From the NCBI GenBank assembly GCA_951812955.1, contig OX638340.1:2144001-2208000 (forward strand): a DNA stretch of 64,000 nt. Direction: 5' to 3'. The translations under genes and the position numbers were made by a program. This document shows, piece by piece, positions 42,976 through 49,050 of the stretch (position 1 is the stretch's first letter; each line of letters begins with the position of its first letter). This DNA is from an uncultured Gemmatimonadota bacterium. Its GTDB lineage: Bacteria; JAAXHH01. The notes under the pieces are model-generated. The model saw only the letters and a list, made by a program, of their open reading frames with translations, did not search any database and was not told where the DNA came from.

Positions 42976-44208
42976 CTACCGAAAGGTATTGACGCCACCC
43001 GTCACCAGTTTCTCGAGCACGATAGACGCGGTGCGACCGACCTGTTCCGTGGAAGCGCGGTCTCGGAAGACGCGGTGGCCGCCTTCGGCGATTTTACGCT
43101 GCAGTTCGCGGTCTCCATGCAGCCGGCGGATGGCGCCGGCGAGCGCTTCCGGATCTCCGCGCCTGCACAGCAGAGCGCTTTCCCCGTCGGCCAACAGCTC
43201 CCGGATGGCCGGGGAGTCCGCGGTGATGACCGCTTTACCCGCCGAAAGCGCCACAAACACTTTGCCCGGTATCACTCGGGCCGCTTTGCCGGACGTGCCG
43301 AATATCCCCAGACATACGCCCTTTCCCTGCAGGAACCGATGGACTCGCTCGTAGGGTATCCAATCGGTGAAGCGTACGTTTTCCAGGTTCAGTCTCCGAG
43401 CGGTCTCGTGGATTTCGTCCGTCAGTTGACCCGTCCCAACGAAATGGAAGACGATATCCGGCATGTCCTTCAGGCGATTCGCCGCTTCCATCATGAACGG
43501 CAAGCCGTGAAGCGGGATGAACTTGCCGACGAACAGGACCCGGAACGGCGTGTCCCCGGAGCGATCCGGTCCGCTCAAATCCTCCGGCGCAACCGGTCCG
43601 CTCAGACCCTTCGACACGTTCTGTCCGCACAGACCCTCCGGCGCAACCGGCTCCACTGCGCCGACGAAGACACGGGAAAACCGGTCGCGCGGCAGATTGA
43701 ATGTATCCACGAAATAGTCGATGTGGGCGTCCGTATCCAGAAGCACGAGGTCCGCCTTCGCGCAGGTCTGCCGGTCCAGCCAGCGCAGGAAACGGCTCGT
43801 CAGCGTGCCTTCCGCAATGGACCGGCGGTCGTCGACCAGGGTGTCGTAAAGAGAGACCAGCGGACTGAATACGAGGGGCCGCCGCGGAAACCGGGTGAGC
43901 AGCCATGCCAGCGGCATATCGAAATGGCCGATGTATCCGACCAGCATGACATCGTAGCGACCGACCGTGAAGAGGTACTTGAGCAACAGGCGGAGATAGG
44001 CCAGCTTCAGCTCGATGGCGCGCAAGACAAGCGAGAACGGGGCCAGGTACCTGCCGGTTTTGTCGCGTTCCTTCTCCCATAGGGGCACGTGGCACTCCAG
44101 CACCCGCCAGCCGGCTCGCGCAAGGCCATCGACGAGCGTTCGGTTACGCGGATAATCGCGTTCGTAAGTGCCAAAGAAGCAGATGCGACCATGTTGGGCG
44201 CGTGCCAT
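42976..44208 (-). CDS. Glycosyltransferase, GT-B fold (GT1/GT4-like)
   Basis: ORF 42976-44268; probable start MARAQHGRICFFG (ATG 44206-44208), with alternative ATG at 44268. C-terminal GT-B domain ...FVGKFIPLHGLPFMMEAANRL...GKGVCLGIFG. Confidence 0.65.
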   Translation of the reverse strand: MARAQHGRICFFGTYERDYPRNRTLVDGLARAGWRVLECHVPLWEKERDKTGRYLAPFSLVLRAIELKLAYLRLLLKYLFTVGRYDVMLVGYIGHFDMPLAWLLTRFPRRPLVFSPLVSLYDTLVDDRRSIAEGTLTSRFLRWLDRQTCAKADLVLLDTDAHIDYFVDTFNLPRDRFSRVFVGAVEPVAPEGLCGQNVSKGLSGPVAPEDLSGPDRSGDTPFRVLFVGKFIPLHGLPFMMEAANRLKDMPDIVFHFVGTGQLTDEIHETARRLNLENVRFTDWIPYERVHRFLQGKGVCLGIFGTSGKAARVIPGKVFVALSAGKAVITADSPAIRELLADGESALLCRRGDPEALAGAIRRLHGDRELQRKIAEGGHRVFRDRASTEQVGRTASIVLEKLVTGGVNTFR

Positions 44209-44212
44209 GGTA

Positions 44213-46298: not shown

Positions 46299-46317
46299 TT
46301 GCCCGAACCCGGCGCGC

Positions 46318-49050
46318 CTAGGGACCGCCTGTGTCGCCGGTATCCTGACCGCCTGCGTCGCCGACCTCGCCAAGATCATCGATCATCGCCTGTACGACCG
46401 AATCTTCCGGTGCGATCCGCAGCCACCTTTCGAGGGTCTCCAGCATGCGTGCCGTATCCTGCTGCAGGTAGTAGAGGTTCACCAATTGGTCGTATCCCGC
46501 GGTGTATTCCGGGAATGCCGCCACGCCTCGTTCGAGCAAGGCTGTGGCCTCATCGATCCGGCCCTGTTTTCTCATGGCTTGTGCAAGCGCCGTATACCCG
46601 TCGAAGGTCTTGTATGCGCCGGCCAGCTCGAAAGCATGGGGTTCGACATCCGCAAACACGCCCTTGTCTGCATAAAACTGGATGAGCATCAGTCGTTCCA
46701 GCACCCCGTTGCTGATGTCGTATTCCAGGTACTTCTCGATGGCGGCGATGGCCTGGTCGATTTCACCCCTTCTCCAGCGATTGAGCGCCAGTTGATGGAA
46801 GGATACGGTGTAATTCCGCAGGAGGGTGCGAATCTGCCTGTCCTTGTATACCTCCGGGTCCGCAATGCCGCGATACCGGTAGACGTTCCATAGATTGTGC
46901 TCTGTCCTGTCGAGGTCCATGAGTTCCGGGTTGGGGTCTCGGACGACCTGCCACACCATGCCTTCCAGCTGCAGGTATTCGTCCAGGCCCACGTCGTTCT
47001 CCGGCGAAACGGTTACGGCGAAATAGACGGGCCTGGTCCAGTTGTTCTGTTCCAGGATGTGCAAGATCATCAGATCCTGCACCCTCAGGTATCCGATGTC
47101 CTCCCCAAGCGTACCGGCCCTCGGCACGGTCCACGTGAGCCCGGCGATCTCGACCTCCCTGTCGTCCCAGCCCTGGACGTTCAAGGACTCGATGGTCTCA
47201 TCGGGCAGCGCGATCGGCACCCGGGGCTCCTGGTACTTCAACTGCTTGATGTACCAGTCGGTATTGAGCAGGCTGAGATTGATCACCCGCACATCCTTGC
47301 GTATGCCTTCCACTTCCTGCAGGAACCAGAGGGTGAAGGTGTCGTTGTCGCCGTTGGTGAAGATGAGGCCGTTCTCTTCGCACGACTGCAGTATGTTGTA
47401 CGCGTAGTCGTACGGGATATAGTTGCCTTCGCGCGAGTGGGACTCGTAATGATAGGTGAAAGGTACGAGCGGAAGGGCGAGCGACAGCATGGCGATTCCC
47501 GCGGTTCCTTTTTCCACGGGCAACCGTAAGCGTTCCAGCCACATCGCTATTTGTCCCAACAGCGACCGGACGCCGATTCCCATTAGTATCGCGGTATAGA
47601 CGAAGGCCGGCGTATAGAAATAATCCCGGATGCGCACCTCGCGCTGTATGCCCTGGCTGCCGTCGGAAAAATTCATGTACAGGATGAGTCCGATACTGCA
47701 GGTGAGCAGCATCCCACCCAGGAACAGGATGCTTCTCCGGTCACGCTCCGCCTGGGTGAGGATTCCCAGGGCGACCAGCAGGACGGGGAGTAGCCAGTAG
47801 GGGAAGCCGGGATCGTTGAACTGCCGGGAAAAGAAACGCCAGAACCCCATGTTTTCGCCATCGCCGAACTGGGACGACCAGCTTCCTTTGCGATTGAACA
47901 TCGATTCGAGCATGCTTTCCTGTCCGTATTGCTTACGCTCCAGGAATCCCTCGAAATTCTTCCAGTTCGACGGGTCATTCTCGTTGATGACCGGCTGTTG
48001 CGCCGCCCGGATCGGCACGTAGAAGTTCACGGAGTATCCCAGCACGGCCATGCAGAGCACGATGAGCCAGAAAGGCCACTTGTACCGGCCAGGATCATCA
48101 GCCGTCGCGGAGACCAGCGCGAGAGCCAGGCTCACCAGCGCCACGCTGAACATGACCGTTCCCCAGGTGGCCTCGAATCCGCCGATACCAAGCAGCGGAA
48201 GTCCGTTGTATGAGCCTATTTCATCCAATCCGAATAACATCACGGCGACGGACAGGACGAATGCCAGCGCCGGGTAGCCCCAGGGCAGCCGTCCCCTGAA
48301 TAGAACCAGACCGGCGGCTGCGAGGGGGACCGCGAGGAAAAACACGTCGATGGAGGCCACGACACTGAACAGGATAAGGCCCATGACCGCGCCCAGCAGA
48401 ATCAGCTTCCTGTTCGACCAGATCAACCTGTCCGTACAGATCACGCTCAGAAAAGCGGCGGGCAGGACGAGCATGGTGAACATGTGCACCGCTATGCCGA
48501 GAAAAGCAAGGTAAGCGACCAGGAAGAGATACCGCTCGCTGCCGTCCTTATCGTGGTTTTCGATCCAGTGCAGGATCAGCCAGGTGCAAACCATCATGAA
48601 CAGCATGGAGAGCGCGTAGACCTCGGCTTCGACCGCGTTGAACCAGAAGGTATCGGAGAAAGCAAGCAGGAGCGCGCCGGTCAGTGCGCTGCAGCAAACG
48701 ACCAGGCTTTCATATAGGGTCAGTCCATTCCGTTCCCGGTTGAGCGTAACCGCCTTTACGATGACCAGGTAAACGGCCGACACAGTCAGCGCGCTGAAAA
48801 GGCACGAAGAGAAATTCACCAGCCAGGCGATGCCCAAGCCCAGGTCGGGCAGCAAGGTGAACAGGCGACCGATCAGGATGTAGAGCGGGGATCCGGGAGG
48901 ATGGGGTATGCCGAGGGTATAGGATGCTGCAATGAATTCACCCCCGTCCCAGAAAGGCACGGTTGGCGCGATGGTCTTGGTGTATACGGCCAGCGACACG
49001 ATGAAGGCGGCCGCCATGCCGATCATGGACACAACGCGATATGCGGACAT
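46318..49050 (-). CDS. DUF2723 (PMT-2-like GT-C fold) polytopic membrane protein with a C-terminal TPR domain: putative polyprenol-phosphate-sugar dependent glycosyltransferase
   Basis: 910 aa; hallmark FWDGGEFIAASYTLGIPHPPGSPLYIL, ~11 TM helices, then TPR-like helical repeats. Confidence 0.65.
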   Translation of the reverse strand: MSAYRVVSMIGMAAAFIVSLAVYTKTIAPTVPFWDGGEFIAASYTLGIPHPPGSPLYILIGRLFTLLPDLGLGIAWLVNFSSCLFSALTVSAVYLVIVKAVTLNRERNGLTLYESLVVCCSALTGALLLAFSDTFWFNAVEAEVYALSMLFMMVCTWLILHWIENHDKDGSERYLFLVAYLAFLGIAVHMFTMLVLPAAFLSVICTDRLIWSNRKLILLGAVMGLILFSVVASIDVFFLAVPLAAAGLVLFRGRLPWGYPALAFVLSVAVMLFGLDEIGSYNGLPLLGIGGFEATWGTVMFSVALVSLALALVSATADDPGRYKWPFWLIVLCMAVLGYSVNFYVPIRAAQQPVINENDPSNWKNFEGFLERKQYGQESMLESMFNRKGSWSSQFGDGENMGFWRFFSRQFNDPGFPYWLLPVLLVALGILTQAERDRRSILFLGGMLLTCSIGLILYMNFSDGSQGIQREVRIRDYFYTPAFVYTAILMGIGVRSLLGQIAMWLERLRLPVEKGTAGIAMLSLALPLVPFTYHYESHSREGNYIPYDYAYNILQSCEENGLIFTNGDNDTFTLWFLQEVEGIRKDVRVINLSLLNTDWYIKQLKYQEPRVPIALPDETIESLNVQGWDDREVEIAGLTWTVPRAGTLGEDIGYLRVQDLMILHILEQNNWTRPVYFAVTVSPENDVGLDEYLQLEGMVWQVVRDPNPELMDLDRTEHNLWNVYRYRGIADPEVYKDRQIRTLLRNYTVSFHQLALNRWRRGEIDQAIAAIEKYLEYDISNGVLERLMLIQFYADKGVFADVEPHAFELAGAYKTFDGYTALAQAMRKQGRIDEATALLERGVAAFPEYTAGYDQLVNLYYLQQDTARMLETLERWLRIAPEDSVVQAMIDDLGEVGDAGGQDTGDTGGP

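Follow-up and report, generated by a model that had tools for sequence, protein, structure and literature searches.

A cluster of four glycosyltransferase genes

We analysed a 64,000-nucleotide (nt) stretch of the genome of an uncultured Gemmatimonadota bacterium (GenBank assembly GCA_951812955.1, contig OX638340.1, positions 2,144,001 to 2,208,000), hereafter called the window. Four glycosyltransferase (GT) genes lie one behind the other on its minus strand and encode a large membrane protein of the GT-C type, a GT4-family protein of the GT-B type, a GT2 protein and a second GT-B protein (Table 1). An earlier note, made from the DNA sequence alone, had described these genes as a co-directional set with short or overlapping junctions, had assigned DUF2723 plus TPR, GT4, GT2 and GT-B domains to their products, and had proposed that they form a periplasmic glycosylation module. 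The positions and the common strand of the genes were confirmed, and Pfam and NCBIfam searches agreed with all of the domain calls. The junctions are indeed tight: reading of the sequence gave 19 nt between the TAG of the GT-C gene and the ATG of the GT4 gene, an overlap of 11 nt (ATGCCGCTTGA) between the GT4 and GT2 genes, and 4 nt between the TGA of the GT2 gene and the ATG of the second GT-B gene. The longest open reading frame (ORF) of the GT4 gene begins at 46379; the ATG at 46298 was chosen, which fits the N-termini of the homologues. Plus-strand ORFs over the four genes (43075..44082, 44444..45412 and others) were rejected as shadow ORFs typical of high-GC DNA.

Table 1. Positions in the window of the glycosyltransferase genes, of the predicted domains of the GT-C protein and of the upstream genes (aa, amino acids; AF2, AlphaFold model).
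Feature	Position	Strand	Length or residues	Remarks
GT-C, TMEM260-like (PF11028, formerly DUF2723)	46318..49050	-	910 aa	
GT-C protein, transmembrane core	47437..49050	-	residues 1-538	15 predicted transmembrane helices; AF2 secondary structure, loop charges, alignments
GT-C protein, predicted periplasmic alpha/beta (Rossmann-like) domain	46846..47436	-	residues ~539-735	alternating strand/helix in AF2 model
GT-C protein, predicted periplasmic TPR domain	46354..46839	-	residues ~738-899	nine helices, ~4.5 repeats; TPR hits, AF2 helices
GT4-family GT-B	45171..46298	-	375 aa	from ATG at 46298, most likely start
GT2, putative ArnC/GtrB-type polyprenyl-phosphate glycosyltransferase	44213..45181	-	322 aa	
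Second GT-B, GT4-type	42976..44208	-	410 aa	from ATG at 44208
YfcE-like metallophosphoesterase (Metallophos_2)	49122..49859	-		stops 71 nt ahead of the GT-C start
ribD, ribE, ribBA, ribH, nusB, YfcE-like metallophosphoesterase	49122..54153	-		upstream, co-directional; Pfam, NCBIfam

The GT-C protein is related to human TMEM260

The GT-C protein matched the Pfam family TMEM260-like (PF11028) over residues 35-206 (E=3.7e-53, 180.4 bits; gathering cut-off 24.2), and residues 745-889 matched TPR_14, TPR_19 and TPR_16. The earlier note had called the protein 'PMT-2-like'; the family is now named after TMEM260, and membership in PMT/GT39 was rejected on a PMT_2 score of 19.8 bits, under the cut-off of 26.1, with no MIR match in Pfam. 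The human protein O-mannosyltransferase TMEM260 was the sole match to residues 1-687 among the sequences of solved structures (E=3.1e-18), and a profile built on 23 members of the family, taken from different phyla, matched it at E=6e-40. The match fell into two stretches, the N-terminal GT-C module and a part that runs from the last transmembrane (TM) helices into the soluble domain. The membrane core has the GT-C fold, and the TPR domain found TPR matches among solved structures.

Cryo-electron microscopy of TMEM260 revealed seven helices that make up the GT-C module and four that form a variable module, with a Rossmann-like 'palm' and TPR 'fingers' in the lumen; mutation of D52, H67, R264, Y267, R355 or D441 abolished or strongly lowered activity, and the Asp of the soluble domain has to reach the first of the external loops (bioRxiv 10.64898/2026.03.17.711096). 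All six of these residues are conserved in the window GT-C protein. Alignment placed D52 and H67, which serve sugar recognition, opposite D35 (FWDGGEF) and H50 (HPPG). R264 and Y267 of the donor-loading loop correspond to R372 and Y375, as judged from a local alignment of FLERKQYG with FLREEYG. The transmembrane Arg R355 aligned with R475 (VRIRDY), and D441, the catalytic base in the palm (RGD), with D568 (NGD in TNGDNDTF). D35, H50, R372, Y375, R475 and D568 were invariant in three independent family alignments (A1-A3, with 20, 62 and 23 members from many phyla).

A confident AlphaFold (AF2) model has 15 TM helices and the N-terminus inside. D35 and H50 lie in the first periplasmic loop of the core, R372 and Y375 in a long periplasmic loop (residues 351-419), and R475 also within the core, and the Rossmann-like domain holds the invariant TNGDNDTF motif. 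Lys and Arg account for 9 of the 46 residues in cytoplasmic loops (20%) versus 11 of the 174 in periplasmic loops (6%). Because of the helix number with the N-terminus inside, the positive-inside bias and the lumenal location of the TMEM260 counterparts, the Rossmann-like and TPR domains are predicted to be periplasmic; no other arrangement lets D568 meet D35 and H50. A TPR domain facing the periplasm is what the earlier note had depended on. Homologues P0001-P0120 all carry the precomputed Pfam accession PF28495 between the PF11028 and TPR models, which is probably the conserved soluble TNGDNDTF domain.

The window protein differs from TMEM260 in four extra helices at about residues 208-345, before the donor-loading loop; 11 of its 15 predicted helices precede the donor-loading motif in the AF2 model. 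Its TPR domain has nine helices as compared with five in TMEM260. The GT-C protein behaves as a TMEM260-like family member in every sequence feature tested except helix number.

The GT2 protein is a predicted donor synthase

The GT2 protein matched Glycos_transf_2 in Pfam (E=3.4e-27). It contains a DAD motif at residues 98-100, within DADLQ, and hydropathy located two hydrophobic helices near the C-terminus (about residues 247-271 and 283-301). Residues 17-306 aligned with residues 9-296 of ArnC (9bhc) at E=6e-53, including DADLQ and the two-helix C-terminal hairpin. The alignment with residues 25-312 of Synechocystis GtrB (sll0501, 5ekp) was also end-to-end (E=6e-34); with the Pyrococcus dolichyl-phosphate-mannose (Dol-P-Man) synthase, the catalytic domain alone aligned. 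A match to the NCBIfam AglJ model was obtained as well (E=1.2e-24). By these alignments, the protein is classed as a full-length ArnC/GtrB-type polyprenyl-phosphate glycosyltransferase. The earlier label 'Dpm1-like' was loose, ArnC and GtrB being the closest relatives.

Two more specific assignments were rejected. As ArnC proper, the transferase of L-Ara4FN to undecaprenyl phosphate (Und-P; NF007986), the protein scored 195.7 bits, far under the equivalog cut-off of 529, and as PgfS it scored 152 bits against an NCBIfam cut-off of 500. Since both scores are far below the cut-offs, we assign no sugar to the GT2 protein.

Bacterial three-component systems of periplasmic glycosylation (for the concept, see PMC11127046) make their donor inside the cell and use it outside. 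GtrB/GtrA/GtrC, ArnC/ArnEF/ArnT, CsbB/GtcA/YfhO and PgfS/PgfM resemble the window cluster in that an ArnC/GtrB-type GT2 is encoded with a GT-C protein. The window cluster differs from these systems in three respects. It lacks a small flippase gene of the GtrA/ArnEF type, while its relatives carry a PF03706 flippase-like protein; its GT-C protein belongs to the TMEM260 family and has a large soluble lobe, predicted to be catalytic and to include the TPR repeats; and it adds two GT-B genes.

A proposed periplasmic glycosylation pathway

We propose, at about even probability, that the cluster carries out lipid-carrier-dependent periplasmic glycosylation, that its two key steps are homologous to the eukaryotic route of protein O-mannosylation by Dol-P-Man synthase and TMEM260, and that exported proteins, one or several, most likely serve as acceptor. 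By homology, the GT2 protein would transfer one sugar from a nucleotide sugar to Und-P at the cytoplasmic face of the membrane. The Und-P-sugar would then be flipped to the periplasmic leaflet, a step for which the window has no gene and for which the PF03706 flippase-like protein encoded beside GT-C in many relatives is a candidate. According to the conserved residues and the model, the GT-C protein may hold the Und-P-sugar by R475, by D35 and H50 at the sugar, and by R372 and Y375 at both phosphate and sugar, while its periplasmic TPR 'fingers' and Rossmann-like 'palm' would grip an extended segment of the acceptor. D568 would deprotonate a Ser/Thr hydroxyl, which would then attack the anomeric carbon in an inverting reaction.

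The homology to TMEM260 runs through the soluble catalytic and TPR domains, and this favours a protein acceptor. The proposed enzyme and TMEM260 share a Pfam family, a GT-C core followed by non-cytoplasmic Rossmann-like and TPR domains (PDB 9RQL/9RQM/9RQN), and a donor that is predicted to be a polyprenyl-monophosphate sugar from a GT2. They differ in the carrier, presumably undecaprenyl phosphate here and dolichyl phosphate for TMEM260, and in the genetic linkage of the window GT-C to cytoplasmic GT4 enzymes. Actinobacterial Ppm1/Pmt (GT39; PMC8698208) also stands for bacterial protein O-glycosylation with a polyprenyl-phosphate sugar and a GT-C enzyme, as predicted here, but it uses another GT-C family and occurs in other phyla. 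Furthermore, TMEM260 differs from Pmt/GT39 in having its catalytic base in the soluble domain and not only in the first external loop.

Conservation of the gene neighbourhood

The family of the GT-C protein is large, with at least 2755 hits in a sequence search, and a scan of one genome per species gave more than 596 relatives. The best 80 of the more than 596 relatives' loci were compared for neighbours within 10 kb of the GT-C gene, and every ORF in them was clustered without prior labels. They came from Latescibacterota, Zixibacteria, KSB1, Marinimicrobia and Gemmatimonadota; from Eisenbacteria, Fibrobacterota, Calditrichota and Cloacimonadota; and from Ignavibacteria, Chlorobi, Balneolales/Rhodothermales and Bacteroidota. 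The closest relatives were metagenome-assembled genomes labelled Latescibacterota or Gemmatimonadetes, with 82-88% identity. A look-up of the window protein by exact sequence in the contig index gave no match.

Three relatives of the window's lineage (L001, L002 and L013) keep the complete array, which extends from ribD as far as the convergent GNAT and TsaB genes, at 71-94% amino-acid identity. Across all loci, a GT4 orthologue with 42-48% identity was the most frequent partner (17 of 80, 14 of them outside the window's lineage), mostly adjacent to GT-C and co-directional. A polyprenyl-phosphate-type GT2 was present in 15 loci; five of those outside the lineage (Fibrobacterota, Eisenbacteria) are ArnC-like with 48-57% identity. 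Further neighbours were another GT2 (12 loci), a PF03706/TIGR00374 flippase-like membrane protein (11 loci) and an S-adenosylmethionine-dependent methyltransferase (10 loci). The co-occurrence of GT-C and GT2 in relatives, on which the earlier note had also relied, is therefore borne out, in a shared operon in L001, L002 and L013 and in the Fibrobacterota and Eisenbacteria loci.

The gene order varied. Fibrobacterota (L019) have rib-nusB, GT-C, GT4, flippase-like, GT2; Eisenbacteria (L037, L052) have rib-nusB, phosphoesterase, GT4, flippase-like, GT-C, GT2; KSB1 has methyltransferase, GT4, GT-C, second GT-C, flippase-like; and Bacteroidota and Ignavibacteriales have HemW, GT-C, methyltransferase, GT4. 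A neighbour-joining tree of 83 family members has three deep clades, and glycosylation neighbours occurred in each of them. Because the complete array is kept in three relatives and its parts recur across phyla, the array is more than a chance arrangement.

One may still ask whether these genes merely share a neighbourhood, given that genes for the envelope and for housekeeping tend to group together: the GT4 and second GT-B proteins would then work in some unrelated pathway of the cytoplasm, and the GT-C protein would receive its donor from elsewhere. Glycosylation neighbours are missing in about two thirds of the 80 loci, the second GT-B gene is lineage-specific, the cluster lies within a rib-nusB housekeeping operon, and GT genes are plentiful in these genomes. 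On the other hand, the junctions overlap or span few nucleotides, and a single GT4 orthogroup, at an identity far above that typical of GT4 paralogues, stands beside GT-C in each of the deep clades and in six or more phylum-level groups, with sets of GT2 and flippase-like genes recurring alongside. We consider a loose neighbourhood improbable.

Some neighbours in other lineages hint at a link to lipopolysaccharide (LPS) core synthesis. A GT9 heptosyltransferase-like gene follows GT-C in Ignavibacteria (8 of 80 loci, among them L018, L025, L026, L029, L031, L053 and L054). An ADP-heptose 6-epimerase gene was found in 6 of the 80 loci; the protein encoded beside GT-C in several other loci (L024, L032, L037, L043 and L050) is a genuine ADP-glyceromanno-heptose 6-epimerase, with 418 bits where the cut-off is 275.

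These neighbours bear on the nature of the acceptor. With the same donor chemistry, the periplasmic acceptor of the GT-C protein might be lipid A, LPS core, a glycolipid or a polysaccharide, on the pattern of ArnC/ArnT or GtrB/GtrC, and its TPR domain might dock onto envelope-assembly machinery instead of binding a peptide substrate. GT9 heptosyltransferase-like and HldD genes stand beside GT-C in loci of Ignavibacteria, Kapaibacteria and Eisenbacteria, and polysaccharide loci typically contain genes for GT4, GT2 and methyltransferase enzymes. ArnC is the best characterised relative of the GT2 protein, and the solved relatives of both GT-B proteins include the lipid-acceptor enzymes PimA and PglA. 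However, TMEM260 is the one solved GT-C to which the window GT-C protein is related in sequence, and the window protein retains both the TPR domain and the soluble-domain Asp that in TMEM260 is the base for a Thr hydroxyl. The GT2 score is also well under the ArnC equivalog cut-off, and sugar-modifying genes of the ArnA, ArnB and ArnD type are absent from the annotated ORFs of the window. We regard a non-protein acceptor as unlikely, but as the likeliest alternative to the main reading.

Three further features were seen in the relatives' loci. ribBA-ribH-nusB lies directly upstream of GT-C or GT4 in Zixibacteria, Fibrobacterota, Eisenbacteria and Ignavibacteria (L011, L019, L037, L052, L067) as well as in L001, L002 and L013, and this linkage of housekeeping and glycosylation genes is conserved unexpectedly widely. 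Tandem GT-C paralogues of the same family occur in KSB1-like and unclassified genomes (L006 9998-15391, L012 551-5990, L015 9983-15411). Marinimicrobia-type loci (L003, L009, L014, L021, L033, L047, L048, L080) have a gene for a DUF1844 protein of about 119 aa, 0-60 nt upstream of GT-C, often with RecG further upstream.

Two cytoplasmic GT-B proteins

The GT4 protein matched Glycos_transf_1 (E=5.9e-48) and Glyco_transf_4 (E=2e-19) in Pfam, and the second GT-B protein matched Glyco_trans_1_4 (E=1.8e-19) and Glyco_trans_4_4 (E=1.3e-7). Both have the two Rossmann domains of retaining GT4 enzymes and, by hydropathy, no TM segment, and on this basis they are classed as soluble cytoplasmic proteins. 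The nearest solved relatives of the GT4 protein are Tll1590, PimA and MshA; the second GT-B protein gave a weak WcaI-like NCBIfam match and weak matches to PimA and PglA among solved structures. Neither protein reached the NCBIfam equivalog level. Among the 80 loci, the second GT-B gene was restricted to the window's lineage (L001, L002, L013), whereas the GT4 gene is the most conserved neighbour of the TMEM260-like GT-C family. Because the GT4 protein is the most conserved partner of GT-C across phyla, we infer that both GT-B proteins share the pathway of GT-C in some way, and we assign them to no step.

The partnership of GT-C and GT4 spans phyla and is unexplained by a simple model of donor synthase and GT-C. 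The donor logic of GT2 and GT-C accounts for neither of the two cytoplasmic GT-B proteins.

En-bloc transfer is the one scheme in which each of the four genes has a part in a single pathway. The GT2 protein would prime Und-P with a first sugar, the GT4 and second GT-B proteins would extend it in the cytoplasm to an Und-P-linked oligosaccharide, a flippase would export it and the GT-C protein would act as an oligosaccharyltransferase. AglJ of haloarchaea acts on dolichyl phosphate in a comparable manner: AglJ and further GTs build a dolichyl-phosphate-linked glycan, which AglB transfers. Like the window cluster, the Agl system combines a DPM1/AglJ-like GT2, further cytoplasmic GTs and a GT-C protein; it differs in that AglB is an N-oligosaccharyltransferase of the STT3 type. 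Such a scheme accounts for a cytoplasmic GT4 as the most conserved partner of GT-C and for the further GT2s, methyltransferase and flippase-like protein that accompany it, and the match of the GT2 protein to AglJ agrees with it. Against this, TMEM260 moves just one mannose, and the GT-C protein keeps every residue with which TMEM260 contacts the sugar; moreover, GT4 often adjoins GT-C with no GT2 nearby. To our knowledge, no bacterial pathway is known that uses an oligosaccharide linked to Und-P (monophosphate), which also counts against en-bloc transfer. We judge it to be quite improbable.

Evidence against the proposed pathway

Several observations weigh against a TMEM260-like pathway with a protein acceptor. 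TMEM260 has 11 TM helices, whereas 15 are predicted for the bacterial protein; we treat the extra helices as bacterial variation that gives no ground to exclude it from the TMEM260-like family. Its TPR region is poorly conserved, and a check of the family alignments for the Asn ladder, by which the TPR domain of TMEM260 grips an extended peptide, listed no invariant Asn in residues 738-899. Strict and relaxed regular expressions for the IPT-type sequon of TMEM260 found no match in any ORF of the window. The GT2 protein is nearest to ArnC, whose partner ArnT acts on lipid A and not on protein, and the heptose-related neighbours described above hint at LPS. About 55 of the 80 loci have neither GT4 nor polyprenyl-phosphate GT2 within 10 kb. 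Two of the four genes are left without a role because cytoplasmic GT4 enzymes cannot extend a sugar that is already periplasmic. No flippase gene was found among the annotated ORFs of the window, in contrast to the 11 related loci that have one; the periplasmic glycosylation system of the earlier note is supported with caveats, and its description as self-contained is not. Finally, the searchable literature contained no experiments on bacterial PF11028 members.

The TMEM260 discovery paper, the only one in the searchable literature to use the term 'DUF2723', mentions merely 'distant homologs in bacteria' (Larsen et al. 2023, PMC10214176). Databases already carry TMEM260 in the family name, and the logic of the pathway is a familiar one. 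Within the FCB superphylum, the TMEM260 family extends from Chlorobi and Bacteroidota as far as Latescibacterota. With fully conserved catalytic residues and a putative donor synthase linked to it, a widespread 'domain of unknown function' gains a specific hypothesis on its role, open to test by mutation. Bacterial members could also serve as models for an enzyme whose loss causes the human congenital syndrome SHDRA, and they add a candidate to the question of which GT-C enzymes glycosylate envelope proteins of the FCB group.

A broader idea, which we think has only a small chance of being correct, is that GT-C, GT4, polyprenyl-phosphate GT2 and PF03706 constitute an ancient FCB-wide system of protein O-glycosylation and the bacterial ancestor of metazoan TMEM260. 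Such a system might add the conserved reducing-end hexose of the general O-glycan of the Bacteroidota type or transfer a GT4-built Und-P-oligosaccharide. The transferase of general O-glycosylation in Bacteroidota is still unidentified (PMC12871550), and the current published candidate is YfhO, not DUF2723 (bioRxiv 10.64898/2026.07.27.740950). That the PF11028 family is this missing O-oligosaccharyltransferase is a speculative proposal of low probability.

Genes around the cluster and elsewhere in the window

The earlier note had placed the cluster directly downstream of rib, nusB and metallophosphoesterase genes on the same strand, and this is the case (Table 1). These genes may be co-transcribed with the glycosyltransferase genes; we treat them as context and not as a demonstrated part of the module. 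Scans of 42300-55400 for sigma-70 promoters and intrinsic terminators gave counts at or below shuffle expectation, which is uninformative on operon structure in an organism of the FCB group. The mechanically called nusB ORF (49909-50882, minus strand, 243 aa) overlaps ribH; because the NusB domain spans residues 111-233 only, the true start is probably near 50340. The downstream neighbours, a GNAT gene and a TsaB-like gene, lie on the plus strand and are convergent with the cluster.

The remainder of the window is ordinary chromosomal housekeeping, and no other glycosylation genes were seen among its annotated ORFs. Several long ORFs, mostly in the regions 4646-8660 and 38101-41500, had no Pfam match at E<=1e-5 (4646..6445, 6448..7368, 7629..8660, 30573..32180, 38128..38949, 38810..39790 and 39735..40757); some of them may be shadow ORFs of high-GC DNA. 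Just upstream of the rib operon, a gene at 55281-60443 (minus strand) encodes a predicted surface protein of 1720 aa with Big_2 and Big_1 immunoglobulin-like domains, many leucine-rich repeats and a Peptidase_M66 segment, and without a TMEM260-type sequon. A DDE_Tnp_1 transposase ORF at 61178-62038 (plus strand) is probably part of an insertion sequence element. Three tandem paralogues of about 803 aa at 15160-23110 (plus strand), each with two MacB_PCD and two FtsX domains, are duplicated MacB-like ABC permeases. At 8836-10188 (plus strand), a 450-aa protein matched, along its entire length, the 'progressive ankylosis protein' (ANKH) family of eukaryotes (E=8e-54), an annotation that is uncommon in a bacterium.

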